DNA of 64,000 bases, taken from positions 180,695 to 244,694 of the forward strand of contig JAOAQX010000007.1 in assembly GCA_025210805.1 (NCBI GenBank), written 5' to 3'. This document shows positions 21,453 to 55,425 of the stretch, one piece after another. A program made the position numbers and the translations under genes. Within the stretch, counting starts at the first letter, position 1. The number at the start of each line of letters is the position of its first letter. The stretch is from Flavobacteriales bacterium. Lineage in GTDB: Bacteria > Bacteroidota > Bacteroidia > Flavobacteriales > CAJXXR01. The notes beneath the pieces were generated by a model. It was not told the origin of the DNA. It was given only the letters and a program-made list of their open reading frames with translations, and did not search any database.

Positions 21453-23324
21453 TTATCTTCCCATATAGACTAAAAGCACACTTACATCTGAGGGAGAAAC
21501 TCCAGAAATTCTTGATGCCTGACCGATAGTTCCTGGTTTAATTTCTTTGAGTTTATTCTTTCCCTCAGAACTTAAAGAAGGGATTTCTTCAAAGTTTACC
21601 CAAGCGGGTATTTTTGTTTGTTCTAGCTTCTCTAGTTTCTTGGCATTATCTTCTTCTCTCTTTATATATCCACTATATTTTGTAAGAATTTCTACTTGCT
21701 CAATGGCTTCTTCATCTCTTCCGTTTTGCTCATAATATTCCTTGATTGTTGGCAAAACTTCTAGGTCTTTGAAGCTTACATTGGGTCTAGAAAGTACGTT
21801 CTTTATTTTGTTTTTTTGTTTCAAAATTTGCGAACCGATTCTTTCTAAAATAGGATTTACAAGAACTGGATCTGCTGATTCTTTCTGAATAAATGCATCT
21901 AATTGATCTGCATATTCAAGTTTTTCCTTCAATCTAACAAGACGATTTTCATCAGCTAAACCTAAATGATAACCTTTTTCGGTAAGTCTAATATCTGCAT
22001 TATCTTGTCTTAATAATAAGCGATATTCTGCCCTTGAGGTAAACATTCTATAAGGTTCATTTGTTCCTTTGTTTACCAAATCATCTATCAGAACGCCGAT
22101 ATAAGCTTCATTTCTCAATAAAACAAATTCCTCTTCCTTTCTTATTTTTCTTACGGCATTTATAGCAGCTATCAATCCTTGACATCCTGCCTCTTCATAG
22201 CCTGTAGTTCCATTAATTTGCCCTGCGAAATAAAGTCCGTTTACTTTTTTTGTTTCAAGTGTTCTTCTCAATTGTGTTGGCGGAAAATAATCATATTCTA
22301 TCGCATAACCTGGTTTAAACATTTTCACATTTTCAAAACCTGGAATCAATTTCAGTGCTTGATATTGTATTTCTTCTGGCAAGGAAGTAGAAAATCCATT
22401 AACATAGATTTCACAGGTTTCCGCTCCTTCGGGTTCTACAAATATTTGATGTCTATTTCGCTCAGAAAAACGAGTGATTTTATCTTCAATAGATGGGCAG
22501 TATCTTGGTCCAAGTCCTTTTATTCTGCCCTGAAACATGGGTGATTCACTAAATCCTTGTTCCAAAATTTTATGTACTTCAGGATTGGTATAAGTGATAT
22601 AACAACTTCTTTGCTTTTCCAATACTTTGGTTTGCGTATAAGAAAATTTTAAGGGATTTTCATCTCCTGGTTGTTCTTCCATTTTAGAATAATCCAGACT
22701 TCTTCCGTCCACTCTTGGTGGGGTTCCTGTCTTCATTCTACCCGATTCGAAACCGAGTTCTTGTAAAGCTTCTGTAAGTCCTTTTGCAGCATGTTCGCCA
22801 GAACGTCCTCCACCAAATTGTTTATTTCCTATATGGATTTTTCCATTCAGAAAAGTACCGTTTGTTAGTATAACTGTTTCTGCAAAAATGGTCATTCCTA
22901 ACTGTGTTTTCACACCTTTTATTATTCCATCTTCCACAATAAGATCAGTAACCATATCTTGCCAGAAATCCAACATTTCTTGTTTTTCAAGCTCTATTCT
23001 CCATCGATCTGCAAAACGCATTCGGTCTGATTGAGCTCGTGGACTCCACATAGCAGGTCCCTTGGATCTATTGAGTATTTTAAACTGGATCATGGTTTCG
23101 TCAGTGATAATTCCTGACATTCCTCCAAGAGCGTCTATTTCTCTAACTATTTGACCTTTTGCAACACCTCCCATGGCAGGATTACAAGACATCTGCCCGA
23201 TAGTTTGCATATTCATGGTAATCAAAAGTGTTTGCTCACCCATCTTTGCGGCAGCATGAGCTGCTTCACAACCCGCATGTCCACCTCCTACAACGATTAC
23301 CTTATATGGTTTTTCTCCAAACAT
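21453..23324 (-). CDS. mnmG: tRNA uridine-5-carboxymethylaminomethyl(34) synthesis enzyme MnmG (GidA)
   Basis: 623 aa with the FAD-binding N-terminus [23 protein letters not shown] and full-length GidA-like sequence. Confidence 0.97.
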
Positions 23325-23764: not shown

Positions 23765-23784
23765 TTTATAATAATTTTGACCTG

Positions 23785-23792
23785 CAAAGGTA
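23785..23792 (-). promoter_or_regulatory. candidate Bacteroidota -7 promoter box (TAnnTTTG)
   Basis: TACCTTTG on the minus strand, 21 nt upstream of the ybeY start codon. Confidence 0.4.
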
Positions 23793-23830
23793 CTAAATTA
23801 TAAGATGTTAATTGGAATTTACTTAACGTT

Positions 23831-24383
23831 ATAACTCTCGTTATAATTAAAAACAGAGTTTTATATTGCCAATAGTTTCTATTATTAAAACTCTCCTACT
23901 GGATATTCTCTCCAAAACAAAACCCTCCCGAAAAGTTAGGACAAGCTCTGTAATTCAAATCCCTCCCGAATAGTCGGGACAAGCTATTTGAAGGGGGTAA
24001 GGGGGATGTTGCATCTTGTTTCATTATCGAATAGCATTTTTTAGTTTCTTTTTATAGGTGGTATTTACTTTGTGTAACATCCCCCTTCCCCCCTTCAAAG
24101 GGGGATTATGATATTCAGTAAATTAACACCACGAAAGCTATAACTTATATTATAATCAAAAACAGAGTTTTATATAGCCAATAGTTTCTTTCTATAGGTG
24201 TTTACTTTGTGTAACATCCCCCTTACCCCCTTCAAAGGGGGATTATGATATTCAGCAAATTAACACCATAAAGGCTATAACTTATATTATAATCAAAAAC
24301 AGAGTTTTATGAAGCCAATAGTTTCTATTATTAAAGCTCTCCTAATGGACATTTTCTCCAAAACAAAACCCTCCCGAAAAGTC
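23831..24383. repeat. S-family composite repeat, locus 2 (nested / partly tandem, about 140-bp period)
   Basis: Inverted repeats at 23988-24014 and 24073-24098, with an extra right end at 24210-24235. Hairpin modules at 23921, 23961 and 24368. The anchor TAGTTTCT recurs at 23873, 24042, 24182 and 24319. Confidence 0.85.
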
Positions 24384-24428
24384 TGTAAACGTTTCAAAGA
24401 GGGTTAAAAACTAATTGATATAGATTCA

Positions 24429-25774: not shown

Positions 25775-26725
25775 TTATTTCCATTCTACAATTTGACCTC
25801 TTTCTCGATAATGCATCACGGGTGAGACAACCGATTTTAAACATTCTTCCAATAAAGATACCAATCTTTCCTTCGAAAAATTTCTTGATACCGCAATACT
25901 CACTTCCCGCAAAGGAGTAAAATCAGAAAATTCTTTTATATGTTTCAGTTTAGAATCCTCCAAATCTAAAACGGTTAATTCTGGTAACAATGTAAACCCT
26001 CCTTCCCTATCAATCATTTTTATGAGCGTTTCAAAAGAACTACTTTGATATTTGTATTCACAACCTGTATGGCTATTATCGGTTCCTCTATGCGCACAAA
26101 GATTGATTACTTGAGATTGAAAACAGTTCCCAGTATTCAGTAACCATAAATCTTCTGTATCAAGATCAGTAGTCTTAATTTGTTCTTTTGAGAATAGATC
26201 ATGTGTTTTATTTACGTAGATTTTGATATCCTCATAGAACACGGGAATAGTTGTTATTGCCTCTTCGTTTGGCAATGGAGTTACGAGAATCCCTACATCG
26301 ATCAAATCCTTATTTAAACGCTCTAAAATTTGTTCTGTTTTCAATTCCTCAATCTCTAGGCAAACTTGCGGATACTTCCTCTTAAATGTTCCTAAAAAAC
26401 GAGGGATAACCGTATTTGCCAAAGTAGGTATAATTCCTATTTTTAGGCTCCCAGAAATTTCATTATTATGAAAATTTATGAGCTCTTTTATCTTCTTGTC
26501 CTCACTCAAAATTTTGCGGGCTTGCTCAATAATTTTTTTACCGACATCAGTGGGTAAAACAGGCTGTTTTGTTCTATCAAAAATGACCACTTCTAACTCC
26601 TGCTCTAGCTTTTTTATTTGCATACTTAAAGTGGGCTGACTCACGAAACATTTGTCTGCCGCCGTAGCAAAATGACGATAAGTATCTACCGCCACGATAT
26701 ACTGATATTGAGTAATGGATGCCAT
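25775..26725 (-). CDS. oxyR: LysR-family transcriptional regulator, OxyR-like
   Basis: N-terminal LysR HTH (HFATAADKCFVSQPTLSMQIKKLEQELEV) and a Cys pair 9 residues apart (GNCFQSQVINLC), as for OxyR C199/C208. The start was moved to ATG 26725 (MASITQYQY). A CAAAGATA -7 box lies 19 nt upstream. Confidence 0.78.
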   Translation of the reverse strand: MASITQYQYIVAVDTYRHFATAADKCFVSQPTLSMQIKKLEQELEVVIFDRTKQPVLPTDVGKKIIEQARKILSEDKKIKELINFHNNEISGSLKIGIIPTLANTVIPRFLGTFKRKYPQVCLEIEELKTEQILERLNKDLIDVGILVTPLPNEEAITTIPVFYEDIKIYVNKTHDLFSKEQIKTTDLDTEDLWLLNTGNCFQSQVINLCAHRGTDNSHTGCEYKYQSSSFETLIKMIDREGGFTLLPELTVLDLEDSKLKHIKEFSDFTPLREVSIAVSRNFSKERLVSLLEECLKSVVSPVMHYRERGQIVEWK

Positions 26726-26743
26726 ATTCAAAAAATTGTTTTC

Positions 26744-26751
26744 CAAAGATA
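26744..26751 (-). promoter_or_regulatory. candidate Bacteroidota -7 promoter box (TAnnTTTG)
   Basis: TATCTTTG on the minus strand, 19 nt upstream of ATG 26725 (oxyR-like gene). Confidence 0.4.
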
Positions 26752-26978
26752 GACAAAAGCCCCAGTTTTTCAACTTGAACAATTGAATCAATATATATTA
26801 GTTATAGACCTTTTTCTTTTTTATAAATACTAAAAACTATTATATATAATATATCCGTTGATAAGTCATTATTTAAATTCTTTGTTATTTAGTTTATCAT
26901 TTGTTATGAACAAAATTAACAGACTTATCAACGTATTATTTAGCTAATAATAATCAATTTAATGCTTTTATTCACAAC

Positions 26979-27073
26979 TGTGGATAAGTACTATCAACAG
27001 TCTTTTGTGGATAAATTTCTAGTGTATAAACCTGAGGATAACCCCTATTTTCTGTGGGTAATCCTGTGGATTA
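26979..27073. promoter_or_regulatory. cluster of five co-oriented DnaA boxes
   Basis: TGTGGATAA at 26979 and 27006 (both perfect), TGAGGATAA at 27033, TGTGGGTAA at 27053 and TGTGGATTA at 27065. Confidence 0.7.
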
Positions 27074-27470
27074 TTTTTGAAAGGTTGATGAAGGTTTTTT
27101 GAGGATTTTTTTTCATTAAGAAATCTAAATGAAAATATCAAGAGCTAATTTTAAAAACTTGTAAACGTGCTACTAAATTTAATTAACAAAAAATGTTGAA
27201 AAGTCGTTAATGATTTTCAGTTTATTAAGAACAGATATCAACAGACTTGTTGATAAGTATAAATGTAGAATTAGATATTTTTTATACAATGTAAAAATCT
27301 AATTTACAATTAAATAAAACATTACCCTAAGATTAAGTGTTTGTAAATCAATCATGGTGATAAATAGCTAATTGAAGAACGATTTAAGCGTGTTTTTTAA
27401 ATGTATTATAATAAAAAATATAGGATGGCTATTTTTACCAAAAGAATTCCCGAAAACCATTTCTGCATAG

Positions 27471-27478
27471 TAAATTTG
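27471..27478 (+). promoter_or_regulatory. candidate Bacteroidota -7 promoter box (TAnnTTTG)
   Basis: TAAATTTG, 22 nt upstream of ATG 27500 (M16 peptidase). Confidence 0.4.
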
Positions 27479-27499
27479 AATAATTATAATCTTAAAGTG

Positions 27500-30379
27500 A
27501 TGATTAAAAGGAATTTATTAAAATTTTTTGTACTTGTTTTTCTAGGAACACTGTTGAGTTTATTGCATTCTTGTGATAAAAAAGAGGGTTTTAAGGAAAT
27601 AGAAAGTGGGAAAAATCCATTTGAATATAAAGTATATCAGTTAGATAACGGTCTAAAAGTATATTTAAGTAAGAACGAAGTAGCACCGAGAATTCAAACC
27701 TATATAGGAGTAAAAGTGGGAAGTAAAAACGACCCAAATACCCACACGGGTTTGGCACATTATTTAGAACATTTATTGTTTAAAGGAACTCAAAAATTAG
27801 GGACTGATCAATGGGAAAAAGAACGACCAATTCTAGATAAAATTGAAGAGAAATATGAGCAATATCAATCTTCATCTGATGGAAAAAAAAGGGAGAAAAT
27901 TTATCAAGAAATAGACAGTTTATCTTATATCGCTTCGCAATATTCTATTGCCAATGAGTACGACAAAATAATGGCAGAAATGGGGAGTAATGGAACCAAT
28001 GCTTATACTTCTTTTGATCAAACTGTTTATCTTACCAATATCCCTTCAAAAAGTCTAGAAAAATGGGTTAAAATAGAAGCCGACAGATTTCAAAATATGG
28101 TGATAAGGTTATTTCATACCGAACTGGAAGCTGTCTATGAAGAATATAATATTAGTTGTGAATCTGATGATGATAGAATAGCAGATTTACTAATGAAAAA
28201 ACTCTATCCCCAGCATGGTTATGGAACAAAAACTACCATTGGAAAACCTGAACATTTAAAGAATCCTTCTATAAAAAGAATAAAAGATTTTTATAATAAA
28301 TATTATATTCCTAATAATATGGTTATGGTTTTGTCTGGTGATTTAAATTATGAAAATACCATCAAAAAAATAGCCAAAGAATTTGGATCTTGGAATTCAA
28401 AAGAATTAATAAAAGAAAAGCAAATTGCCACAGAGCTAAAAGGTGTTGAGAACATAAAAACTATCGGAAATGAAAGTGCGAAAGTAGCCATTGGTTATCG
28501 TCTTCCAGGATATAGAGCCGATGATAATTTTGTATTTTCTATTATAGAAAGAATGCTTTTTAATGGTTTTGGAGGTTTAATGGACAAAAATTTGATTAAA
28601 TCCAATAGAGTACAAGATGCCTATGCTTATTTGTGGTCAAATGAGGATTATTCTACTTTTATTCTTGGTGGTAACGGGCATGATAATCAAGAATTAGTGG
28701 AAACACAGATTTTACTTTTTGAGCAAATAGAGTTACTAAAGCTTGGAGCATTCCCAGATTGGCTACCAAAAGCAGCTTATAATGATCTTAAAAACGAGTA
28801 CTTAAAACGCATTGATAATAACGAGCATAGAGCCAATGAAATGCTTTCTGCTGGGCTATATGATTACTCTACAGAGGATTTTATACAAAGATTAGAGAAG
28901 TATAAAAATATTAGTAAACAGGATATTGTAAAGAAAGCAAATGATTTTTTTAAGAATAACTATTGTACCATTTCTATGGAACAAGGAAATTTTAAAGCTC
29001 CAAAAATTGCCGCTCCAAAAATAACTCCTATAAAAAGAAGGAAAAATAGTAAATCTGATTTTTATAAAGAGGTATCAAACCTGCCTGAAGAAGTAGAAAA
29101 ACAGGAGTTTAAAGATATTGATGCAATCTTGAAAAAGAACAAAAAAGGAAACTACTTTTTTGTTGAAAACAAAGCAAATGACCTTTTTCAGCTTGAGTTT
29201 ATTATGGAGAAAGGCTCTTATGATAATCCGCTACTTGCTCTAGGTTTAGAGTATATAAAACAGCTGGGAAGTGCCGAAATGAGTCAAGAAGAATTAACCA
29301 ATGAGTTTTATAAAAATGGGGTGAACTGGGATCTTAAAATAGCATCAAAAACAATAAGAATTCAAATGGAAGGCTTGGCAGAAAGCTTACCCAAAACACT
29401 GTCTTTAATTGAAAACTTGATTCAAAAACCAAAACCAAATTCTACAATTTTCAAATCCTTTATTGCTTCTAAAATTAAACAAAGGTCCGATCTCTTTTAT
29501 AAGCAAGAAGACTTGCTTTGGAAGGTATTTTTGGGTCATATTAAACATGGAAAAGAGAATCCTATGATGGATACTTATTCAAAGAAATTTCTTACTTCCG
29601 TAAATGAAAAGGATTTATTATTGGCAGTAAATAACTTCTTTCATGAGCTTGATTATGTTCATTATTTTGGACCAAAACCTTTTAATAAAGTTAAAAAAAA
29701 TCTAGAATTTGTAGCTTTTGATAATCAGCGTGAAGAAAAAAATATTCTGGAAAAAAATATTGAACAAAAAACCTATTTTATGCATCATCAAATGGTACAA
29801 GCCGAAGTACTCATGGTAGCTAAAAGTGGTGTGGTACACGAAAATAACTGGGTAGACCATTTAGTTTATAAAGGTTATTTTGGAAATCTGGCTTATAGAG
29901 AATTAAGAGAATCAAGAGGTTTAGCATATTCTACTTATATAACAATAAGAGAAGCCACAAGAAAAAATAAGCATGATTATGTAATGGGATATATAGGTGC
30001 TCAAGCGGATAAATTACCCTTGGCATTAAATGGATTAAAAACTTTGATAAAAAGAAGTCCTGATGATGTAAAACTTTTTGAGGAATCAAAAACGAGTTTA
30101 ATCAAACAGATTCAATCTCAAAGACTCAAAGATCGCTATATTTTTGAGCGTTGGTATGTGCTTCAAAAGAAAGGTTTTGAACGTGACTTATACGAAAAAG
30201 CACTAAAAAAATTGGAAAACTATTCCTTTAATGATTTTGTTGCATTTTATGAAAATAATATTGCCAATCTCGATTATTCCACACTCATATTGGGAGATAA
30301 AACAGCTATTGATTTCAATATGTTGGATGCCCGTGTGAAAAATATAGAATGGGTAGATAAAAAAGACCTATTAGAATAA
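27500..30379 (+). CDS. M16-family (insulinase/pitrilysin-like) zinc peptidase, lipoprotein
   Basis: Inverted zincin motif HYLEH in GLAHYLEHLLFKGT. The start was moved to ATG 27500 (MIKRNLLKFFVLVFLGTLLSLLHSCDK, lipobox). A TAAATTTG -7 box lies 22 nt upstream. Confidence 0.85.
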   Translation: MIKRNLLKFFVLVFLGTLLSLLHSCDKKEGFKEIESGKNPFEYKVYQLDNGLKVYLSKNEVAPRIQTYIGVKVGSKNDPNTHTGLAHYLEHLLFKGTQKLGTDQWEKERPILDKIEEKYEQYQSSSDGKKREKIYQEIDSLSYIASQYSIANEYDKIMAEMGSNGTNAYTSFDQTVYLTNIPSKSLEKWVKIEADRFQNMVIRLFHTELEAVYEEYNISCESDDDRIADLLMKKLYPQHGYGTKTTIGKPEHLKNPSIKRIKDFYNKYYIPNNMVMVLSGDLNYENTIKKIAKEFGSWNSKELIKEKQIATELKGVENIKTIGNESAKVAIGYRLPGYRADDNFVFSIIERMLFNGFGGLMDKNLIKSNRVQDAYAYLWSNEDYSTFILGGNGHDNQELVETQILLFEQIELLKLGAFPDWLPKAAYNDLKNEYLKRIDNNEHRANEMLSAGLYDYSTEDFIQRLEKYKNISKQDIVKKANDFFKNNYCTISMEQGNFKAPKIAAPKITPIKRRKNSKSDFYKEVSNLPEEVEKQEFKDIDAILKKNKKGNYFFVENKANDLFQLEFIMEKGSYDNPLLALGLEYIKQLGSAEMSQEELTNEFYKNGVNWDLKIASKTIRIQMEGLAESLPKTLSLIENLIQKPKPNSTIFKSFIASKIKQRSDLFYKQEDLLWKVFLGHIKHGKENPMMDTYSKKFLTSVNEKDLLLAVNNFFHELDYVHYFGPKPFNKVKKNLEFVAFDNQREEKNILEKNIEQKTYFMHHQMVQAEVLMVAKSGVVHENNWVDHLVYKGYFGNLAYRELRESRGLAYSTYITIREATRKNKHDYVMGYIGAQADKLPLALNGLKTLIKRSPDDVKLFEESKTSLIKQIQSQRLKDRYIFERWYVLQKKGFERDLYEKALKKLENYSFNDFVAFYENNIANLDYSTLILGDKTAIDFNMLDARVKNIEWVDKKDLLE

Positions 30380-30422: not shown

Positions 30423-32075
30423 ATGAAGAAGGTATTAATTATTACAATCGCATTAGTAATCAGTATAAAAAGTGTTTATGCGCAGAATATTGAAGATAAA
30501 TTATTATCTCAATTATCGCTTGCAAAAGTAGATACCCAAAAAGTGAATTTGATGATTGATCTTTTCTATTATTATACAGAAATAGATTATGTAAAGAGTC
30601 AGGATTTTGCAGAAAAAACCTTAGATCTATCCAAAAGTATAGGATATGAAGAAGGAGAAGCTCAAGGATATTTTGGATTAGGCTTGGCTTATGATCATTT
30701 TGGAGAATATGAGAAAGCTTTAGAATATTATATAAAAAGCTTAACCATATTTGATAAACTTAATGACTATAGAAGTTCATCGTCGGTTTACACAACAGTA
30801 GGAATATTTTTTAGAAAAAGGAAAAACTATGATCAGGCAATAGAATACTATTTGAAGGCCGTGCATTTAGATTCAATTTATCAGAGAAATATAGAACTTG
30901 CTGGTAATTATAATAATATAGGGAATATTTATGCAGATCTGAATGAAGCGGAAAAGACCATGGAGTATTATCAAAAGTCTTTAGCACTGTATGAAGCAGA
31001 AGGAGATTTGTTTCAAATGGCAGCTATAAAGGTAAACTTGGGTATTCAGTATGAGGAAAATGGAGATTTTAAGAAAGCAGAAAACCTTTTTATCGAATCT
31101 TATAAAATATCTCATGAAATTCAGGACTTAAAAGATATTATGATTGCCAGTACCAATTTAGGATTCAATTATGTTAAACAAAAAGAGTTTGACAAAGCGA
31201 AACGATATCTTTTTGAAGCTCAAGAAATTTGCGATTCATTAAAGTTTAAAAACTGGAGAGAAAACTTATTGGAAGGGTGGATTTTATACGCAACTGAACA
31301 AGGAAATTTTCAGGAGGCTTACGAGTACCAAAAAGAGCTCATAATGCACAATGATAGTCTTTATGACATTGCCCAGCAAAATACGATTGAAGAATTGCAA
31401 GCTCGATTTGAAAATGAACAAAAAGAAAAAAAAATCATTGAGCTACAAAAAGAACAAAGCCTTCAGAATAAAAAGAGATGGAATTTGATCATTATTCTAG
31501 CAGTTTCTATTCTTTCAGGAATATTTTTGTTTTTTTGGCAACGAACGAAACTTCTCAAAGAAAGAAAAATAGCCCAACAGAAAAAACAGATTCTTGACGC
31601 TCAAAACAAACAGCTTGCATTGGAAAGAGAAAAAATTCAGCAAGAACTAGAATTTCGAGATAAAGAACTTTCTACTTTTGCTTTGCATTTGGTTCAAAAA
31701 AATGATTTTTTGACACATATTGAGAAGATCATAAAACAGGTTTCTGCTAAGAGTCAAGAAACAAAAAAAGCACTTAAAGATATTTCCTTAGAGCTTCACC
31801 ACAATAAACTAATAGGAAAAGACCTTGTGGATTTTCAGGCACGCTTGGATCTTGTAAATAATCAATTTTTTGAATTACTAGAAAAGAAGTTTCCAACTAT
31901 GACCAAAAATGAAAAACGCCTTGCAGCCTTGTTGAGATTAGACCTAAGTACCAAAGAGATTTCTGTGCTAAATCATGTGAGTGAACAAGCCGTAAAAATG
32001 TCAAGACATCGACTAAGAAAAAAATTAAACATGGATTCTAAAGTAAATCTGACGGATTTTTTCAAGAAAATATAG
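30423..32075 (+). CDS. TPR-repeat, single-pass membrane, LuxR-type HTH transcriptional regulator
   Basis: 550 aa. It has a signal peptide, multiple TPR-like repeats (AL.YY.KSL pattern), a TM segment WNLIIILAVSILSGIFLFFW, a coiled coil and a C-terminal LuxR HTH (KEISVLNHVSEQAVKMSRHRLRKKL). Confidence 0.75.
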   Translation: MKKVLIITIALVISIKSVYAQNIEDKLLSQLSLAKVDTQKVNLMIDLFYYYTEIDYVKSQDFAEKTLDLSKSIGYEEGEAQGYFGLGLAYDHFGEYEKALEYYIKSLTIFDKLNDYRSSSSVYTTVGIFFRKRKNYDQAIEYYLKAVHLDSIYQRNIELAGNYNNIGNIYADLNEAEKTMEYYQKSLALYEAEGDLFQMAAIKVNLGIQYEENGDFKKAENLFIESYKISHEIQDLKDIMIASTNLGFNYVKQKEFDKAKRYLFEAQEICDSLKFKNWRENLLEGWILYATEQGNFQEAYEYQKELIMHNDSLYDIAQQNTIEELQARFENEQKEKKIIELQKEQSLQNKKRWNLIIILAVSILSGIFLFFWQRTKLLKERKIAQQKKQILDAQNKQLALEREKIQQELEFRDKELSTFALHLVQKNDFLTHIEKIIKQVSAKSQETKKALKDISLELHHNKLIGKDLVDFQARLDLVNNQFFELLEKKFPTMTKNEKRLAALLRLDLSTKEISVLNHVSEQAVKMSRHRLRKKLNMDSKVNLTDFFKKI

Positions 32076-32222: not shown

Positions 32223-32280
32223 AAGATTTGGATAAGCTTGCCAAAGATTTGGATAAGAAAAAAGTTCTCCTTCCAAATCT
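32223..32280. promoter_or_regulatory. direct repeats AAGATTTGGATAAG x2 (21-bp spacing) plus an inverted half-site CCAAATCT
   Basis: Copies at 32223-32236 and 32244-32257, with the inverted AGATTTGG at 32273-32280. It lies 30-87 nt upstream of the ATG at 32310. Confidence 0.35.
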
Positions 32281-32309: not shown

Positions 32310-33023
32310 ATGTTACTCAAAAAAACACTTAAAATTACTTTGCTTTGTGGAGCTCTTTTAGCTTCTTCTACTTCTAGCTATGCACAAAATTTTTCTCAAA
32401 GAGAGCAACAAGAAAATGTCATTAAAATGAATGTGGTGGGTCTTTTTGTTGGTCAATATCAATTCGCTTATGAAAAAGCATTAAATAATAAATTTTCTGT
32501 CCAATTTTCTGCTGGTTTCATTAACTCAAGTTCTTCAGGAAGCTCAACAATTAACGGGGTAGAAAGTAAATACGACAATGCTCGAAATGGCTTTATTGTA
32601 ATCCCTGAATGTAGATTTTATCCCTTTTCAGATGAAGCACCAAGAGGAATGTATCTTGCTGTATTTGGTCGTTATAGAAACGTTACAAATGATCTTACAG
32701 ATGTCAGTGAAATAAAGGAAGGACAAGATAAGGATCTTTCAAGAGAACGAACGAATACATCTATAGGTGGTGGAGCTGTTCTTGGTTATCAATGGATTGG
32801 TAAAGGAGGTTTTAGCTTCGAAATTTTCGCTGGACCGCAATACAAATCTAGAACATCGACAACAGAATATGATGTAGCTGAATTAAACGAACCAGCATCT
32901 AATTCCACAAGCTATGACTCGCTTGGAGACGAATTGTTCGCCAAAAAATATATTGATTTCGAAGTTGATGATGCAGCTGGAATGGGAATCAGATTTGGGT
33001 TTAATTTCGGGTTCGCATTCTAA
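32310..33023 (+). CDS. hypothetical outer-membrane beta-barrel protein
   Basis: 237 aa with signal peptide ...SSTSSYAQ and C-terminal GIRFGFNFGFAF (aromatic terminus). Confidence 0.5.
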   Translation: MLLKKTLKITLLCGALLASSTSSYAQNFSQREQQENVIKMNVVGLFVGQYQFAYEKALNNKFSVQFSAGFINSSSSGSSTINGVESKYDNARNGFIVIPECRFYPFSDEAPRGMYLAVFGRYRNVTNDLTDVSEIKEGQDKDLSRERTNTSIGGGAVLGYQWIGKGGFSFEIFAGPQYKSRTSTTEYDVAELNEPASNSTSYDSLGDELFAKKYIDFEVDDAAGMGIRFGFNFGFAF

Positions 33024-36314: not shown

Positions 36315-36884
36315 ATGTTTATTGAGCATAGAAGAAGTAAATCCAAAGTAAAAGGATGGCTAGAAGTTATTTGTGGATCCATGTTTTCGGGGAAAACAGA
36401 AGAATTGATTCGCAGGCTCAAACGAGCTAAAATAGCCAAATTGGAAGTTCAAATTTTTAAGCCACAAATAGATACTCGTTATCATGAAAATAAAGTTGTT
36501 TCTCATGATTCAAACAGTATTTCCTCTGTGGCTGTAGCAAGCTCTAAAGAAATTTTGACACTCGCTCAAAATTTTGATGTGATCGGTGTAGATGAAGTTC
36601 AGTTTTTTGATGAAGACATTGTAGAGGTTTGTAATGCACTTGCAAATCAAGGAATAAGGGTTTTGGTTGCTGGTTTGGATATGGATTTCGAGGGAAAACC
36701 CTTTGGTCCCATGCCTCTCTTAATGGCAACTGCCGAATTTGTCACAAAAGTCCATGCAATATGTGTATCTTGTGGAGATGTCGCTCAATATTCCCATAGA
36801 ATACATAAAGATAAGCAACAAGTTTTGTTGGGCGAAAAAAATGAATATGAACCACTTTGTAGAGTGTGTTATACACAAAAATAA
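36315..36884 (+). CDS. tdk: thymidine kinase
   Basis: 189 aa with the P-loop [14 protein letters not shown] and C-terminal zinc-ribbon cysteines (CVSCG ... CRVC). Confidence 0.95.
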
Positions 36885-39355
36885 TGCAATTAAACGCCAA
36901 AGAACTATTAGCGATCTCTCAGGATTCAGAAAGTAAAATTTTTGATTATAATCAATCAATTCATCAAGTAATTATTGATAGTAGAATAACGGTTTCTAAT
37001 CCTCAAGAAGTTCTTTTTGTAGCCTTAAAAGGAACTCAATTTGATGGTCATGATTTCGTAAAAGCACTTATTAAAAAAGGCTTTTATAATTTTTTGGTAG
37101 AATATATCCCTACTGATTTAGAAGATGAATCAGTTAATTTTTTTGTTTGCGAAGATTCTTTAAGTACTTTACAGGATATCGCAAAAAAATATCGCAAAAA
37201 ATTGCGATTCCCCATTCTCGGGATCACAGGTAGTAATGGGAAAACAGTAGTGAAAGAATTTATCTATCATCTACTTTGTAAAGAATATCATATTAGCCGT
37301 TCTCCTAAAAGTTTCAATTCCCAGATAGGCGTTCCTTTATCTGTTCTAGAAGCAGAAGAAGGAAGTGATTATGGAGTGTTTGAAGCAGGAATATCCGAAA
37401 TAAATGAGATGCGCAAATTGCAAGAAATAATCTTGCCTGAGGTGGGGATATTTACAAATTTGGGCGATGCTCACCAAAAGAATTTTGAATCATTTTCACA
37501 TAAATTTTCTGAAAAATTACAACTTTTTAGAGACTCAAAAACACTGATTATCCATGAGGATTTAGCAAATCAATTTTATCAAGAAATTAAAAACGCTTTA
37601 CCTAATATAAAACTGCTAAAATGGGGGGAAACTTCGACTTCTGAAATAAGAATTTTAGAAATAATCAGAAAAAATAATTTCACAGAAATAACGGTACAAA
37701 TAAAAGCGGAAAAATACACTTTCAAAATTCCCTTTCATGGAAAAATATGGGAGGAAAACGCCTTGCATACTTTTGCCTTTCTTTGGTGTATAAAAATGCT
37801 CCATCCCGAAGTTTTAAAACGTTTTGAAACCTTGCCCTCTATGTCCATGAGACTAGAAAAAACAAAGGGACTTTATCAGTCAATTTTGATAAACGACGCT
37901 TATTCAAACGATACACAATCTCTTTATAGAGCCTTAGAAACGATGAAAGAAGGCGGTGGAGAAAAGTGGTTGATTCTTTCAGATTTTGTGGATGTTTTTA
38001 AGGATAAAAAGACATTCTTCACACAGCTTTCAAAAGACTTATTACAATACCCAAATTACCGAATTATCGGAATTGGAAACGATTGGCAATCTTTTGGATA
38101 TTTGTTTCAGAATTTGATAGAGACTCATGAAAATGCTCAAAACTTTCTAAAATCTTTTGATAAAACCCGTTTAAACAATAAAAGAATTCTCATAAAAGGA
38201 GCTCGACGTTTTGCTTTTGAAAAAATTGTCGAGCATTTTTCACAACGGCCTCATAGTACCATTTTGAATGTCAATTTGGATTATTTAAAGCACAATTTTC
38301 AATACTTTCAAACCCAAATTCCGCAGGATACAGAAATCATTTTGATGCTCAAGGCATTCTCCTATGGAGTAGGGGCTGTAGAGCTCGCTTTGGAGCTCGA
38401 AAAACAGGCAATTTGGGGCTTTGCTGTAGCTTATGTAAATGAAGGTATAGAACTGAGAAATGCAGGGGTAAAAGCGAAAATTATGGTGTTAAATCATCAA
38501 GATTCCTCTATTGATCTCATGATTAAACATCACCTGGAACCCGAAATCTTTCAAAGTTCTATGCTCGTTTCTTGGCAAAATACACTTTCTTCAAAAAAAA
38601 TAGACTCCTACCCTGTTCACATTAAGTTGGATACAGGAATGAATCGCTTGGGTTTTAAACTAGGTGACGACCTCTTTGCCATTGAGACAATTCAAGAATG
38701 CCCAAATATTCAATTGGCTTCTATTTTTTCTCATCTTGCAGATAGTTTTTCTGAAGACGGAAAAAGCTTTACCTGTCAACAAATCAATCAATTTAAAGAA
38801 AGAGCACAGCTTTTCGAAAAAAAATTAAACCAACAAATTCCCCAACATATTCTCAATACCAATGGTATTCTTAATTACCCTCAAGCCAGCTTTGACATGG
38901 TGCGTTTGGGTATTGGACTTTTTGGACTTTCAGTAGCGGAAAAACATCAGAAAAATCTACTTACTGTTCTTTCCCTCACCACTTTTATTAGTCAAATAAA
39001 ATGCCTTGAAAAAGGTGAAGCAGTAGGATACAATAGAAAATTTATTGCCCAAAAACAAACCAAAATAGCCACTATAGGAATGGGATATGCCGATGGGATT
39101 CCAAGAAAGCTCGGAAATGGTGTTTGGGGGGTATTTATTCGTGGCATTTTCTGTCCTTTTGTGGGAGATATTTGCATGGATATGTCTATGATAGATATCA
39201 GTCATCTGAAAGAAATTTCAGAAAATGATGAGGTAGTTCTATGGGATGAACGATTTCCGATTTTAGAAGAATTTGCTAAAAAAGCAGACAGTATCAGCTA
39301 TGAAATCCTTTGTGGTCTTAGTGAACGGATCATGCGAATATACCAACGTGATTGA
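36884..39355 (+). CDS. bifunctional UDP-N-acetylmuramoyl-tripeptide--D-alanyl-D-alanine ligase (MurF) / alanine racemase (Alr)
   Basis: The N-terminal half carries the Mur ligase P-loop GITGSNGKT. The C-terminal half is alanine-racemase-like (PLP lysine context MLKAFSYGVGA, ...GYADGIPR). ATG 36884 overlaps the tdk stop codon (TAATG). Confidence 0.9.
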   Translation: MQLNAKELLAISQDSESKIFDYNQSIHQVIIDSRITVSNPQEVLFVALKGTQFDGHDFVKALIKKGFYNFLVEYIPTDLEDESVNFFVCEDSLSTLQDIAKKYRKKLRFPILGITGSNGKTVVKEFIYHLLCKEYHISRSPKSFNSQIGVPLSVLEAEEGSDYGVFEAGISEINEMRKLQEIILPEVGIFTNLGDAHQKNFESFSHKFSEKLQLFRDSKTLIIHEDLANQFYQEIKNALPNIKLLKWGETSTSEIRILEIIRKNNFTEITVQIKAEKYTFKIPFHGKIWEENALHTFAFLWCIKMLHPEVLKRFETLPSMSMRLEKTKGLYQSILINDAYSNDTQSLYRALETMKEGGGEKWLILSDFVDVFKDKKTFFTQLSKDLLQYPNYRIIGIGNDWQSFGYLFQNLIETHENAQNFLKSFDKTRLNNKRILIKGARRFAFEKIVEHFSQRPHSTILNVNLDYLKHNFQYFQTQIPQDTEIILMLKAFSYGVGAVELALELEKQAIWGFAVAYVNEGIELRNAGVKAKIMVLNHQDSSIDLMIKHHLEPEIFQSSMLVSWQNTLSSKKIDSYPVHIKLDTGMNRLGFKLGDDLFAIETIQECPNIQLASIFSHLADSFSEDGKSFTCQQINQFKERAQLFEKKLNQQIPQHILNTNGILNYPQASFDMVRLGIGLFGLSVAEKHQKNLLTVLSLTTFISQIKCLEKGEAVGYNRKFIAQKQTKIATIGMGYADGIPRKLGNGVWGVFIRGIFCPFVGDICMDMSMIDISHLKEISENDEVVLWDERFPILEEFAKKADSISYEILCGLSERIMRIYQRD

Positions 39356-39469: not shown

Positions 39470-41722
39470 TTAATCAATACGGTAAGTGATTCCTAAATAC
39501 CATTCTCTCCCGCGGATCGGTCCCCAAGCATAAGCTGTTTCAAAATCCCTAGAAAAAGGGTTTTTTGTATCCAAAATAGGTTTTTTCTGCTTGTAGTTAA
39601 AGATATTTTCTAATCCTGTGTAGAATTTAAACTTCTTGTAATAATAAGAAACTTGTCCGTTTATTAACCAATAGTTCTCGCCTTGTACTAAAGGATTTTC
39701 TGTAGGAACAGGAACAGCACTATTAAAATGCGCATTGAGATCTAGGTGAAGTTTTTCCTCCATAAGTCTATATGAAGTAGCTATTCCGAACTGATGAGGA
39801 ACATAAAATGGTGTTTCATTATATTGCTCATTTTTTTCCATTTGGTTTTGGGTAAAAGTATAAGACAGTTTCAGATCCAATTTTTCTTTATACGTAGATG
39901 AAATCTCTATTTGTCCTCCACGAGATCTACTTTTTTGAAGATTTTTGATGATAATTTCCTCATTATTTTTGCTATAATCATAGAAAACTTGGTTGTCAAA
40001 ATGTGTCTGGTAAACATCTGCACTAAGATAACCTTCCCAATTTTCGGTACTGAAATTTTGCGTAAAATTCAAACCATAATTTAGGGCTTTTTCGGGCATT
40101 AACTCATCAATAACGAGGTTTCTACCTGTGGATAAAACTTTAATGTTTTCAGGAAACAAAAGTGGATTTCGCCACCCAGATCCTATACTTGCTCTAAGGC
40201 TTGAGTTTTCATTTAAATCCCACTTAGTGAGTAATCTTGGAACAAAAAATGCTCCATGCTCTTGGTGATGATCTAGTCTTAATCCTAAAATCATGGTCAT
40301 TCTACTAGGGATTATTTCCGATTTAAACTCTCCAAAAATACTTGCCACTTGGTGATTTTCTGTATAAAGTCCATCAAAGTCTCTTTTTAAAGGATTTTCT
40401 GTAAAGCTAATGTCTTGATCCATATCTAATAATCGAAATCCTGCACCTAATTTATAACTTGATTTCTCATTGAGTCTCACGCTATAAAAAGCTTTGGCGT
40501 AAGCCAAAATCTGTTGTGCATCATACAAAGTGGTTCCATAATAACTTTTTTGATCATGATAAGATGCGGAGAGGTTTACGCTAAGAAAACGATCGTCATC
40601 CCATTTGTAGATGTTTTTAGACCAAAATTCGGGTTGTTTAAATGATACAGATTGTCCATAAACTTCTGTTCCTCCCAAGTGTTTTTCTTTATCAAAGTCC
40701 ATTTGACCACCGAGTCTATCCTCTTGAATATACCTAAAGGTTGTGGTAGAGAAAAACCCCCAATCTTTTTTATTTCCAAACTGGACAGTGTTCAGTACAT
40801 GGAATCGATTAAGTTGAGGTAAATCCATAAAACCATCATCATTATTATCGGTTTTTTGGGCAGGAAATACGGTGTTTAAAGAGAGTAAATTACTCCAGCC
40901 TTTTCCTTTGTATTTATAATGAACATTCCAATGGTTTTCACCAAAATTATTGATAAACATATTGGCGGTAAGCTTTTCTGAGTCATTTGGTTTTTTGAGT
41001 TTTACATCAATTACTCCCGAGATTACATCATAATCTTGCATTACGCTATTTGCTCCTTTTGCTACATCGATGGCGTTGATAAGTGGTCCTGCTATTCCAC
41101 TGGTTCCATAGGTATAATTGAGTCCTTGCTGGAGCGGAAAACCATCAAACATTACTTGATTATAAACTCCTGACACACCCAATAATTGAAGCTCACGAGC
41201 GTAGGTAATCACGTTGGACGTTTTGGTTTTTACAGATTGTTGGGTAGCAAAACTTCCTGCAAGATCACAACAAGCAAATTTGTTTAGTTCTGTTTCCGAT
41301 ACTTGCTCAACTTTTACAGTTTTTAGGTTAGAAATTTTTATTCCTTTCCTTTTTTCCACAAGATCAACTCCTTCTAACTCATTGCTTTCTTCAAGAGTTA
41401 TTTGCTGATAAGTGTTTGGATTCGTTATTTTTAGTTTTTGAGTTTGATATCCCACATGACTAATGACCAAAGTTCTGTTGGTACTAGACGGGAGATTTAG
41501 GGAGAAATTCCCTTGTTTATCAGTAACGGTTCCAATAACGGTATTATCCCAGAATACATTGGCTTCTGATAAGGCATTTTTGTTTTGGTCAACTACATTT
41601 CCGCTTATTTTTTCTTGGGCAAAAGAAAACTGTATGAGCAGAAAAAAGAACCCCAACAAGTAGCCTTTCCCCAAAACGGCAAACTGACTCGCTTTAGGGA
41701 AAAGTGAATAAAGACTTTTCAT
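39470..41722 (-). CDS. TonB-dependent receptor with N-terminal carboxypeptidase-regulatory-like domain
   Basis: 750 aa. It has a signal peptide, a CarboxypepD_reg-like N-terminus (ISGNVVDQNKNALSEANV...DKQGNFSL), a plug region and a large beta-barrel with a C-terminal ...EWYLGITYRID. Confidence 0.85.
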   Translation of the reverse strand: MKSLYSLFPKASQFAVLGKGYLLGFFFLLIQFSFAQEKISGNVVDQNKNALSEANVFWDNTVIGTVTDKQGNFSLNLPSSTNRTLVISHVGYQTQKLKITNPNTYQQITLEESNELEGVDLVEKRKGIKISNLKTVKVEQVSETELNKFACCDLAGSFATQQSVKTKTSNVITYARELQLLGVSGVYNQVMFDGFPLQQGLNYTYGTSGIAGPLINAIDVAKGANSVMQDYDVISGVIDVKLKKPNDSEKLTANMFINNFGENHWNVHYKYKGKGWSNLLSLNTVFPAQKTDNNDDGFMDLPQLNRFHVLNTVQFGNKKDWGFFSTTTFRYIQEDRLGGQMDFDKEKHLGGTEVYGQSVSFKQPEFWSKNIYKWDDDRFLSVNLSASYHDQKSYYGTTLYDAQQILAYAKAFYSVRLNEKSSYKLGAGFRLLDMDQDISFTENPLKRDFDGLYTENHQVASIFGEFKSEIIPSRMTMILGLRLDHHQEHGAFFVPRLLTKWDLNENSSLRASIGSGWRNPLLFPENIKVLSTGRNLVIDELMPEKALNYGLNFTQNFSTENWEGYLSADVYQTHFDNQVFYDYSKNNEEIIIKNLQKSRSRGGQIEISSTYKEKLDLKLSYTFTQNQMEKNEQYNETPFYVPHQFGIATSYRLMEEKLHLDLNAHFNSAVPVPTENPLVQGENYWLINGQVSYYYKKFKFYTGLENIFNYKQKKPILDTKNPFSRDFETAYAWGPIRGREWYLGITYRID

Positions 41723-43957: not shown

Positions 43958-43965
43958 TATCTTTG
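43958..43965 (+). promoter_or_regulatory. candidate Bacteroidota -7 promoter box (TAnnTTTG)
   Basis: TATCTTTG, 22 nt upstream of ATG 43987 (helicase). Confidence 0.4.
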
Positions 43966-43986
43966 TATCCAATTATTTCCTCAAAT

Positions 43987-45225
43987 ATGATGATGCAAGA
44001 AGAAAATAAAAACGCCTTTAGTCATTTAGGTTTACGTGCAAAAGTACTTTCCACCATTAGAGATCATGGTTTTACCGATGCTACAGCCATCCAAAAAAGA
44101 GCTATTCCCGCCATGCTGGAAAGAAAAAACATGATAGGTGTTGCCAGAACAGGAACAGGAAAAACACTTTCTTTTCTTTTACCTATAATAGATCAATGGT
44201 TGGAAGACAAATCACGTCAGTTTTTATTGCTTTGTCCCAGTAAAGAACTTGCTTACCAGCTAAGGGATGAATTGGAGAAATGGCGACCAGATGAACTCAT
44301 GAGTTATGCCATTGTATCTGGAGGAATGAAAGAACGTTCTATTCAAAATTTGAGAAAAAAGAATCCATCGGTAATTATTGCCAATCCCGGAATGCTTGCC
44401 ACTTTACTCTCCAAAAGTAGATTTAACCTTGCTGGAATTTATACTATGGTAATGGATGAAGTAGATCAAATGATGGAAAAAAGCATGAAAGGTGCGGTGG
44501 AAAAAATTCTTGTATCAGTACCTAGCAAATGTCAGAAAGCTTTTTTCTCGGCAACAGTCCCTAAAAACCTGAAAGCGATTATTGAAGAACAGGCAAAAGA
44601 TACTGAATGGATTGAAATTCAAAAACATATTTCCAACAAACTGAATATTGAGGAAAAAGTTTATTATTCAAAAAAAGATGATAAAGAAGAGCTTCTGTTT
44701 CATCTCTTATATGAATATCTTCATCATAAAACTATTCTATTTTTTAATGACCGATTCTTTGCCAGAGACTTTTATCAAGCACTCAAAAAAGCAGATTTTC
44801 AAGTGGAATTTCTTCATGGAAAAAAAGGAAATAATACCCGTTTGAACTCCATTAATCGATTTAGGAATAATGAATTCAATATATTAATTACCACAGATGT
44901 TCTCGGAAGAGGAATTGATATTCCTGATACCACTTTAGTGATCAATGCCGAAGTACCGGATAATAAAGAAAACTATGAACACCGCATAGGAAGAACAGGA
45001 AGATTAGGGAGAAAAGGTATCGCCATTAGTTGTATTTGTGTAGAAGAATTGCAAAAATTCCGTCAAATACAAAAACTTCATAAAGAAACTATTAAGGAGG
45101 TGTATAACCATCCATTTTATGAAAAAATGCCCGAAAATATCATAAAAACAAAACTAAAAAATAGCGGAAAAGACGGTTCAAATGTCCATAGACTGGCTTG
45201 GAATAATCTTTTGAAGGGGAAATAG
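43987..45225 (+). CDS. DEAD-box-type ATP-dependent RNA helicase (DEVD variant)
   Basis: It has the Q-motif region (GFTDATAIQKRAIP), motif I ARTGTGKT, Ia PSKELA, II MDEVD, III SAT, V TDVLGRGIDIP and VI HRIGRTGRLG. The start was moved from TTG 43963 to ATG 43987. A TATCTTTG -7 box lies 22 nt upstream. Confidence 0.88.
   Translation: MMMQEENKNAFSHLGLRAKVLSTIRDHGFTDATAIQKRAIPAMLERKNMIGVARTGTGKTLSFLLPIIDQWLEDKSRQFLLLCPSKELAYQLRDELEKWRPDELMSYAIVSGGMKERSIQNLRKKNPSVIIANPGMLATLLSKSRFNLAGIYTMVMDEVDQMMEKSMKGAVEKILVSVPSKCQKAFFSATVPKNLKAIIEEQAKDTEWIEIQKHISNKLNIEEKVYYSKKDDKEELLFHLLYEYLHHKTILFFNDRFFARDFYQALKKADFQVEFLHGKKGNNTRLNSINRFRNNEFNILITTDVLGRGIDIPDTTLVINAEVPDNKENYEHRIGRTGRLGRKGIAISCICVEELQKFRQIQKLHKETIKEVYNHPFYEKMPENIIKTKLKNSGKDGSNVHRLAWNNLLKGK
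45151..45221 (+). repeat. 71-bp direct repeat, copy 1 (3' end of helicase gene)
   Basis: AAACTAAAAAATAGCGGAAAAGACGGTTCAAATGTCCATAGACTGGCTTGGAATAATCTTTTGAAGGGGAA. It is identical to 45981-46051 except for one C/T difference. Confidence 0.95.
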
Positions 45226-45240
45226 TTAAAACAAATATAA

Positions 45241-45819
45241 ATGAAAAATTTATACATAATAGCAGGTCCAAATGGTGCTGGAAAAACAACAGCATCTTTT
45301 ACAGTACTGCCAGAAATATTGAATTGCCAAGAGTTCGTTAACGCAGATGAAATAGCTCAAGGTTTATCTCCTTTAAATCAAAATGGAGTAAGTGTTCAAC
45401 TACAATCAGGAAGGCTAATGCTACGCCGAATTCACGAATTATTGGAAAAAGGTATTAATTTTGCATTAGAAACTACATTGTCCACAAGGAGTTATATTAA
45501 GTTTATTAAATTAGCTCAAAGTAAAGGATATCTTGTCACGTTACTCTTTTTACATTTAGATTCAAGTGAGTTAGCTATAAAACGTGTTGAGATAAGAGTG
45601 AAAGAAGGAGGACATTCGATACCCGAGAATGTTATTATCCGTAGGTATCAGAGTGGATTAAAGAATTTTTTCCAATTGTTTAATAATGTTGTTAATAAAT
45701 GGGTTCTAGTCAACAACACTCATGGGAGCATGGACGTAATTGCCGAAAAAAATGATGATTCAGTGAGCGTTGTTGATCATGAAGTATGGTGTAAACTTAA
45801 AAAAGAGTATGATGAATAA
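45241..45819 (+). CDS. zeta-toxin-like / COG4185-type P-loop ATPase (kinase fold)
   Basis: 192 aa with Walker A GPNGAGKTT at the extreme N-terminus. The overall pattern (FVNADEIA, ETTLS, hydrophobic strand LLFLHLD) is typical of zeta-toxin/AAA_33-like small kinases, from memory. Confidence 0.72.
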   Translation: MKNLYIIAGPNGAGKTTASFTVLPEILNCQEFVNADEIAQGLSPLNQNGVSVQLQSGRLMLRRIHELLEKGINFALETTLSTRSYIKFIKLAQSKGYLVTLLFLHLDSSELAIKRVEIRVKEGGHSIPENVIIRRYQSGLKNFFQLFNNVVNKWVLVNNTHGSMDVIAEKNDDSVSVVDHEVWCKLKKEYDE

Positions 45820-46283: not shown

Positions 46284-46291
46284 TACTTTTG
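46284..46291 (+). promoter_or_regulatory. candidate Bacteroidota -7 promoter box (TAnnTTTG)
   Basis: TACTTTTG, 16 nt upstream of ATG 46307. Confidence 0.4.
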
Positions 46292-46306
46292 CACAAAATA
46301 GTCATC

Positions 46307-55010: not shown

Positions 55011-55011
55011 T

Positions 55012-55401
55012 ATGATTGGTCTTATCGGAGCCTTATTGGTATTGGTTTGTGTTATATTGATAATCACAGTGATGGTACAAAACCCAAAAGGAGGAGGATT
55101 ATCTTCAACATTTGGTGGTGGAAACCAAATTTTGGGAGTTCAAAAAACCACTAATTTTATCGAAAAAACAACTTGGACACTTGCTGTAGTTCTTGTTGTC
55201 TTAGTATTAGCATCGCACAAGTTTATCAATGTTCAGACTAGAGCAGTTGATACACCAGAGCTTAAAAACGAATATCTTGAAGAGGTAAAAGAAACAGGAA
55301 TGCAAGCACCAGCTGCTCCTGCTGCACCAGCAAATACTGCACCAGCCACAGAAACTCCTGCAAGCACACCAGCTACAGAAGAAACACCAGCTGCTGAATA
55401 A
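55012..55401 (+). CDS. secG: preprotein translocase subunit SecG with Ala/Pro/Thr-rich C-terminal tail
   Basis: Two TM segments flank MVQNPKGGGLSSTFGGGNQILG, a characteristic SecG loop. The tail is APAAPAAPANTAPATETPASTPATEETPAAE. Confidence 0.85.
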   Translation: MIGLIGALLVLVCVILIITVMVQNPKGGGLSSTFGGGNQILGVQKTTNFIEKTTWTLAVVLVVLVLASHKFINVQTRAVDTPELKNEYLEEVKETGMQAPAAPAAPANTAPATETPASTPATEETPAAE

Positions 55402-55425
55402 GTATTTCGGTACCAAAAAAACTTA

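Follow-up and report, generated by a model that had tools for sequence, protein, structure and literature searches.

The AT-rich intergenic gap between an oxyR-like gene and a divergently transcribed M16 family peptidase gene in contig JAOAQX010000007.1 of an uncultured Flavobacteriales bacterium very probably represents the DnaA-dependent chromosomal origin of replication (oriC) of this organism. The predicted origin occupies about 26790-27260 (all positions refer to the window, that is, the whole 64-kb stretch of DNA analysed here), and we put the probability of this reading at roughly 85%. The proposal was first made from the letters alone (hereafter, the sequence-only reading). It is supported by a cluster of DnaA boxes, a switch of GC skew, divergent genes, a minimum of duplex stability, conservation in seven relatives and negative controls. 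Features used in origin prediction are found together here: clustered boxes, a skew switch of the origin type, an AT-rich element, a nearby indicator gene and divergent gene orientation.

The gap was originally described as 708 bp long. Its AT-rich character and its location at the point where gene orientation flips were upheld, while its size had to be revised, as it rested on the longest open reading frame (ORF). The start of oxyR was set at the ATG at 26725 (316 aa), in agreement with the JGI gene call and with homologues of 313-316 aa, and for the peptidase the ATG at 27500 was taken, the most plausible start, from which a lipoprotein signal peptide follows. The gap so defined runs from 26726 to 27499 and measures 774 bp.

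The DnaA-box array and its conservation

Five co-oriented DnaA boxes, all on the + strand and spaced by 27, 27, 20 and 12 bp, had been pointed out in the gap, and all were recovered at the same coordinates. Two of them are perfect copies of TGTGGATAA (26979-26987 and 27006-27014), and three are one-mismatch copies. The entire window contains three perfect boxes, the third being located at 40127. In a Markov simulation of 200 sequences of 64 kb, no stretch of 100 bp reached five same-strand boxes (one mismatch allowed; the maximum was 2), and a Poisson estimate of the chance of such a cluster gave about 3e-7. When TTATCCACA boxes with at most one mismatch were counted, 7 were found in 289 bp of the gap, including 2 perfect ones; simulations gave at most 3 in 300 bp.

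Weaker variants were listed around the main boxes in the sequence-only reading, and they are present, although the one placed at 26992-27000 is better read as CTATCAACA at 26991-26999. The motif GTTGATAAGT/ACTTATCAAC does occur three times, and the weaker TGTTGATAA/TTATCAACA variants in the gap were confirmed. Three further boxes had been missed: an opposite-oriented, one-mismatch TTATTCACA at 26968-26976, and two weak, positionally conserved boxes at 26904-26912 and 27194-27202. Boxes Rc and F2 (names as in Table 1) form a near-palindrome, 2 bp apart. A 15-nt inverted repeat has one arm (26922-26936) that contains box Rb and another (26853-26867) that covers box F1.

Related loci were found in seven metagenomic genomes whose OxyR proteins are 62-71% identical to that of the window, with the next matches in the protein search dropping to about 53%. 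The contigs of four relatives came from this search and three further ones from a metagenome scan. In all seven, a gap of 670-860 bp whose G+C content is 22-24% lies upstream of a gene pair, oxyR-thioredoxin, and the genes diverge from the gap. In all eight genomes oxyR adjoins the gap and is transcribed away from it. The far neighbour is an M16 peptidase gene in the window and in the relatives designated L045, L047 and L048, and a UvrD-type helicase gene in L051; the gaps of L053-L055 are closely alignable with that of L051. The L051 locus has the UvrD-type helicase gene followed by a gene with a PD-(D/E)XK nuclease domain, in place of the M16 peptidase gene.

The eight gaps can be aligned with a mean column identity of 59%. 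A de novo search for enriched 7-mers in the first five gaps returned at the top a single motif family (ATTAACA, CTGTGGA, GTTAATA, GTTGATA, ATCCACA). Exact matches to TGT[G/T][G/A]ATAA (TGTKRATAA) are concentrated in the gaps of the relatives: 10 of the 11 matches in the 21-kb locus of L045 fall within the gap, as do 10 of 17 in L048, 8 of 9 in L051 and 1 of 3 in L047. By alignment column, at least eight box positions are conserved, namely the TTATCCACA-oriented ones at 26904, 26925 and 26968 and the TGTGGATAA-oriented ones at 26979, 27006, 27053, 27194 and 27248. A further conserved weak site at 26856 abuts the AT block; this box, F1, keeps its position but has 2-3 mismatches in every genome, and in the L051 group an extra TGTTGATAA just upstream of it creates a tandem TGTTGATAAGGTGTATAAG.

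Since a column with the perfect consensus in one genome can have TGTGAATAA or TGTTAATAA in another, these sites form one class, which varies almost only at box positions 4 and 5. The commonest variant in the relatives is TGTTAATAA, two mismatches from the DnaA consensus, and the gaps of L045, L047 and L048 contain no perfect box. Box F5 has 0-2 mismatches in all eight genomes and is a perfect TGTGGATAA in L051, L053 and L055. The window genome has two additional boxes compared with its relatives, and one of them (F4, at 27033) sits in an 11-nt insertion (alignment columns 372-382) that is missing from all seven.

Two observations on box-like sequences outside the gap can be added. The isolated perfect TGTGGATAA at 40127-40135 is located inside an ORF with a CarboxypepD_reg domain (39470-41722, - strand) and is probably a chance occurrence. 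A 14-nt direct repeat, AAGATTTGGATAAG, present twice at 32223-32257 and 21 bp apart, scores as two one-mismatch DnaA boxes; the spacer in which it lies is flanked by a TPR-LuxR regulator gene at 30423-32075 and, on the other side, by a DUF3575 gene at 32310-33023, and the repeat may be a regulator binding site.

Strand asymmetry, controls and duplex stability

Raw GC skew switches sign at the gap. Because raw skew also tracks the coding strand, a regression with a coding-strand covariate was used, in which 500-bp bins were regressed on the net coding strand and on a step function whose position was scanned. The GC-skew check suggested in the sequence-only reading gave, at the local scale of the 64-kb window, a coding-corrected change-point at the gap: the best step lies at 27,000, in the bin that contains the gap. 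With this step, which is +0.039 rightward, the polarity of an origin, the residual sum of squares (RSS) drops to 167.6 from 194.3. In a block permutation of the residuals, 1 of 1000 permutations matched this improvement anywhere in the window (p about 0.001). With a common coding coefficient, the intercepts of successive segments (about 9 kb each, the last 10 kb) were -0.042, -0.029 and -0.084 to the left of the gap and +0.085, +0.029, +0.045 and 0.000 to the right. The skew at third codon positions (GC3), taken on the + strand, is negative left of the gap and positive right of it in genes of either orientation.

The zero intercept of the 54-64 kb segment matches a group of low-skew genes at 53748-56686. 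In these + strand genes the coding-strand GC skew ranges between -0.07 and +0.03; most others right of the gap have values of about +0.1 to +0.2. The low skew could result from a local rearrangement or a recently acquired segment.

Gene orientation changes at the gap as had been claimed. Coding sequence left of the gap amounts to 17.4 kb on the - strand and 4.8 kb on the + strand, and right of it to 21.0 kb on the + strand and 10.6 kb on the - strand; 78% of coding bases are thus on the - strand left of the gap and 66% on the + strand right of it.

The pooled skew regression of the seven relatives, performed without the window, peaks 0.5 kb upstream of the oxyR ATG, which is inside the gap (RSS drop 76.6, step +0.058). 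In three relatives, mnmG and oxyR are found on shared contigs, with mnmG 31, 33.5 and 21.6 kb from the gap. Samples of 22 kb taken 12-45 kb from the gap in three relatives have coding-corrected skews of -0.044, +0.088 and +0.077 (each +/- 0.014), all of the predicted sign, so the strand asymmetry spans tens of kilobases and is not a local effect.

As controls, 40 distant oxyR loci (OxyR identity of at most 53%, AT-rich loci included) were examined, of which 22 were used for skew. Within the kilobase upstream of oxyR, the exact motif was absent from these loci except for one match in one locus. The same regression at the 22 loci detected no skew switch at oxyR (RSS drop 0.7, step -0.002). A scan of a genome collection with the OxyR protein returned distant loci only (identity of at most 51%), none of which has a box cluster.

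Several other identities for the array or the gap were considered and rejected. An OxyR operator does not fit the absence of the motif from the 40 distant oxyR loci, apart from the single match. A plasmid, prophage or secondary-replicon origin was rejected on account of the housekeeping flanks, the conserved synteny and the lack of a rep gene, and a terminus was rejected on the skew polarity and the gene divergence.

According to nearest-neighbour energies, the stretch 26791-26891 is the minimum of duplex stability of the entire 64 kb at scales of 30, 60 and 100 bp. The AT tract originally named as a possible unwinding element falls inside this least stable duplex and is a plausible candidate for that role. 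The AT block, CTTTTTTTTTAATT...TATATATATAAT, is kept in all eight genomes and lies on the side toward which the TGTGGATAA-oriented boxes point, as in Escherichia coli.

Comparison with known origins and alternative explanations

In the Bacillus subtilis incC sequence, the DnaA-trios and the AT-rich region come after 5'-TTATCCACA. The same order is described in the literature on this species (PMC6669920, PMC10721633). For E. coli, when the strand is drawn so that the unwinding element is at the left, box R1 has the sequence TGTGGATAA, and the left-oriented array is directly next to the element (PMC13643167). By the box-direction rule of these two origins, the boxes of the window point left, to the AT block.

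The gap resembles E. coli oriC in several traits: its DnaA boxes are graded in their affinity, the TGTGGATAA-oriented ones (R1, for example, in E. coli) face an AT-rich region for unwinding, the site is away from dnaA and near gidA/mnmG, and flanking transcription runs outward. It differs in several respects. No GATC site occurs in the gap, and one was counted across 6.2 kb of the eight aligned gaps, so that control of the Dam/SeqA type, unlike in E. coli oriC, is not expected. The gap has no 13-mer repeat family, its core measures about 470 bp compared with 245 bp, and box positions 4 and 5 are relaxed to T and A. Moreover, TTATCCACA-oriented sites separate the TGTGGATAA-oriented array from the AT block here; the E. 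coli order is the reverse, with the unwinding element bordered directly by the left-oriented array (PMC13643167). Judged by these traits (no GATC, no 13-mers, another array order), the gap is not an origin of the E. coli type.

With the B. subtilis incC and its basal unwinding system (BUS), defined as two co-oriented boxes directly followed by at least three DnaA-trios (3'-GAT-5') and then an AT-rich stretch, the gap shares co-oriented boxes as an anchor and an AT-rich region on the orientation-predicted side (PMC6669920, PMC10721633). In contrast, it is not located between dnaA and dnaN, has no GC cluster and DnaA-trio run next to a box, and, in the TTATCCACA reading, meets an opposite-oriented box first after 26979.

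Closer relatives offer precedents by reported position rather than by sequence. In Mariniflexile litorale KMM 9835, the oriC predicted by Ori-Finder adjoins mnmG and agrees with GC skew, while the position of dnaA mismatched the skew plot (PMC11278836). The Ori-Finder oriC of Algorimicrobium KMM 8389 also adjoins mnmG and agrees with GC skew (PMC12843772). These Flavobacteriaceae origins belong to the same order, Flavobacteriales, and likewise have mnmG near (3.4 kb here). They differ in that other sequence lies between mnmG and the gap here, and in three sister genomes the distance is 21-34 kb, with oxyR as the adjacent gene. An origin away from dnaA is of an ordinary kind, already predicted in other flavobacteria. 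An oriC of Cytophaga hutchinsonii, first located by prediction of this kind, was then used experimentally for replicative plasmids (Xu et al. 2012, cited in PMC4009838); this organism belongs to the same phylum and a different class (Cytophagia), and its origin serves as a precedent only.

If the gap is an origin, DnaA would first bind the near-consensus boxes at 26979-27073. It would then occupy the conserved array of about nine weaker TGT[G/T][G/A]ATAA sites, laid out as three TTATCCACA-oriented sites on the left and at least five TGTGGATAA-oriented sites on the right. The resulting DnaA oligomer could melt either the T-tract/(TA)n block (26791-26855) or, next to it, the T-rich DNA as far as about 26960, after which the replicative helicase would be loaded and two forks would depart in opposite directions. 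Divergent transcription of oxyR and the peptidase gene from the gap edges may aid opening, a speculation based on the analogy with gidA/mioC in E. coli.

Other explanations of the array have to be weighed against this proposal. DnaA-box clusters outside origins are known in well-studied bacteria, and the gap might be such a cluster, either a titration or reactivation locus like datA or DARS or a promoter of the peptidase gene or oxyR under DnaA control; the true oriC would then lie at another place, for instance beside dnaA. The location of dnaA outside the window and the use of a metagenome contig instead of a whole replicon leave room for this reading. It nevertheless appears improbable, because a titration or promoter site predicts neither a skew switch of origin polarity exactly at the gap, which is seen in the window and seven relatives and persists 12-45 kb out, nor a window-wide stability minimum, nor gene divergence. 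We regard as very improbable the proposal that the 9-mers are sites of another, lineage-specific protein (a nucleoid protein or dimeric regulator, for example), which would recognize TGTTAATAA and its palindromes, the array controlling the divergent oxyR-thioredoxin and peptidase genes. The presence of perfect TGTGGATAA in the same columns as TGTTAATAA or TGTGAATAA points to one class centred on the DnaA consensus, most sites are single, non-palindromic and irregularly spaced, and they are missing at the 40 more distant oxyR loci; a regulator array would also leave the skew switch unexplained. What speaks for such a protein is that TGTTAATAA, the commonest form in the relatives, is two mismatches off the DnaA consensus, that Rc/F2 and Re/F8 form near-palindromes, and that the array is always linked to oxyR.

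Raw GC skew tracks the coding strand with a coefficient of 0.06-0.11, and the gap parts divergent genes, so one may also ask whether the boxes are a chance cluster in a long AT-rich promoter spacer and the skew change is simply the coding-strand switch at a divergent pair. This is hardly credible, since the switch persists after coding-strand correction and block permutation, the 22 control loci show none at oxyR, simulations never produced the cluster and the box positions are conserved in eight genomes.

Some observations do weigh against a replication origin in the gap. Four-fold-degenerate-site skew in the window is noisy, with too few G/C sites, and on its own shows no visible switch. The source is a metagenome contig of 301 kb, and the skew evidence is local (the 64-kb window and the relatives' samples of 21-22 kb), not replicon-wide. 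The strong boxes lie 120-190 bp off the stability minimum, with three opposite-oriented boxes intervening. A DnaA-trio run adjoining a box was sought in the gap and none was convincing; a trio-like run, TTATTATTA, is 26 nt from the box at 26979, past an opposite-oriented box, and such matches are uninformative in DNA with 76% A+T. Furthermore, TGTTAATAA is not within the relaxed consensus of E. coli, and the gap of L047, with its single exact motif match, holds a degenerate array. A strand asymmetry of TT[A/G]TT (36 on the upper strand versus 21) is weak and indecisive in AT-rich DNA. The distance of the strong boxes from the stability minimum, the array order, the missing trios, the weak TT[A/G]TT asymmetry, TGTTAATAA and L047 concern how the origin works, not whether there is one.

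The site variation permits a further idea, which we consider possible but rather unlikely: that the working origin site of this clade is no longer the universal DnaA box, having drifted to TGTTAATAA or TGTTGATAA, and that the window genome regained consensus boxes, one of them via the 11-nt insertion. If such a drift occurred, either the specificity of DnaA at box positions 4-5 would have shifted or relaxed, or the array would be shared with another protein that binds the origin. The array would then be permanently coupled to oxyR, an oxidative-stress regulator gene, with divergent transcription abutting the unwinding block.

Surroundings of the gap and implications

Table 1. Coordinates of the predicted origin, its boxes and the flanking features in the window
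Feature	Position	Strand	Description
Intergenic gap between divergent oxyR (-) and M16 peptidase (+)	26726..27499		774 bp, 24% G+C; carries the candidate oriC and both promoters
Candidate DNA unwinding element (predicted)	26791..26855		T-tract and (TA)n block immediately left of box F1
Box F1	26856..26864	+	CGTTGATAA, 2 mismatches, TGTGGATAA orientation; adjoins AT block
Box Ra	26904..26912	-	TTATGAACA, 2 mismatches, TTATCCACA orientation on + strand; GTTAT..ACA invariant in 8 genomes
Box Rb	26925..26933	-	TTATCAACG, 2 mismatches
Box Rc	26968..26976	-	TTATTCACA, 1 mismatch; TTAT..ACA invariant in 8 genomes
Box F2	26979..26987	+	TGTGGATAA, perfect; relatives carry TGTTAATAA-type sites at the same position
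Box Rd	26991..26999	-	CTATCAACA, 2 mismatches; conserved in no relative
Box F3	27006..27014	+	TGTGGATAA, perfect; L045 and L048 have TGTGAATAA at the same columns
Box F4	27033..27041	+	TGAGGATAA, 1 mismatch; window genome only
Box F5	27053..27061	+	TGTGGGTAA, 1 mismatch; best conserved site
Box F6	27065..27073	+	TGTGGATTA, 1 mismatch; window genome only
Box F7	27194..27202	+	TGTTGAAAA, 2 mismatches; relatives: TGTTGATAA, TGTGGATAG, TGTTGATAG or TGTTAATAA
Box Re	27235..27243	-	ATATCAACA, 2 mismatches; palindrome with F8; position not conserved
Box F8	27248..27256	+	TGTTGATAA, 1 mismatch; TGTT.A.AA invariant in 8 genomes
Probable -7 element of oxyR promoter	26744..26751	-	TATCTTTG, fits Bacteroidota TAnnTTTG consensus
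Probable -7 element of M16 peptidase promoter	27471..27478	+	TAAATTTG, Bacteroidota-type
oxyR-like LysR regulator gene	25775..26725	-	NCBIfam OxyR match 5.9e-62; transcribed away from gap
M16 family peptidase gene, lipoprotein signal	27500..30379	+	Pfam Peptidase_M16 and M16_C; transcribed away from gap
mnmG (gidA), origin-proximal indicator gene	21453..23324	-	TIGR00136, 844 bits; 3.4 kb from gap

The -7 element of Bacteroidota promoters has the consensus TAnnTTTG, and a probable element of this kind was recognized for each of the two flanking genes (Table 1). Both are at most 25 bp from the start codons, so the central 630 bp or so of the gap is unnecessary for the promoters. The columns of the oxyR -7 element read CCAAAG or CCAAAA in the window, L045, L047 and L048, and are not kept in the L051 group. 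A scan of the gap for sigma-70 promoters and terminators gave counts equal to the shuffle level, the sole terminator-like match being the pairing of boxes F5 and F6. No ORF in the gap exceeds 46 aa and none is credible, and an Rfam search of the gap found no credible RNA family (best match only E = 0.13).

The window is part of a 301.3-kb contig (Ga0400167_020890) of JGI metagenome 3300039008, on which the gap is found at about 207.8 kb, and its MnmG is 100% identical to an NCBI protein assigned to a Flavobacteriales metagenome-assembled genome. The surroundings consist of chromosomal housekeeping genes, including those for rimO/miaB-type enzymes, a T9SS (type IX secretion system) component, asd, rpiB, mnmG, ybeY, ispG, tdk, a murF-alr fusion, uvrC, secG and tRNAs. 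The absence of dnaA from the window was borne out, as no ORF of at least 100 aa in it has a Bac_DnaA domain. The closeness of mnmG, originally given as 3.5 kb, was found to be 3.4 kb, and ybeY, a repeat-rich spacer, a thioredoxin-like gene and oxyR lie between it and the gap. The adjacency of mnmG is loose in the clade, and the conserved neighbour of the gap is oxyR.

Gene order around the predicted origin differs among sister genomes, as was seen in L045 with L133 (contig Ga0400167_111332), L048 with L134 and L051 with L135. Seen from the gap, mnmG and oxyR share one side in the window and L048, and L045 has mnmG on the other; this switch of sides is consistent with an inversion spanning the putative origin.

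The spacer between ybeY and the thioredoxin-like gene (660 bp, 23765-24428) is rich in repeats and matches no Rfam family at the gathering score. Two copies of a 130-nt direct repeat lie there in tandem (24060-24189 and 24197-24326, 94% identical), another direct repeat measures 112 nt (23825-23936 and 24271-24382, 88%), and 27-nt G-rich inverted repeats, TTTGAAGGGGGTAAGGGGGATGTTGCA, occur at 23987-24013 versus 24073-24099 and 24210-24236. The spacer looks like a repetitive extragenic palindrome (REP)/miniature inverted-repeat transposable element (MITE)-like repeat or a small-RNA repeat. Further to the right, a murF-alr type fusion is encoded by a single 829-aa ORF (36866-39355, + strand) with a Mur ligase domain and both alanine racemase domains. 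A Zeta-toxin/AAA_33-like ORF of 192 aa (45241-45819, + strand) is located between two DEAD-box helicase genes (43963-45225 and 46289-47596).

The result provides a predicted origin for an uncultured Flavobacteriales lineage known from metagenomes alone. Such a prediction may be used for orienting contigs of metagenome-assembled genomes (MAGs), for estimating growth rates from coverage gradients and for designing origin-based shuttle plasmids. The current understanding of bacterial origins is unchanged by it. It adds cases, in uncultured Flavobacteriales, of a predicted origin near mnmG without dnaA close by, and in this clade the stable neighbour of the predicted origin is oxyR rather than mnmG. 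Finally, the alignment of the eight genomes offers a site-by-site record of the turnover of DnaA-box strength at fixed positions.

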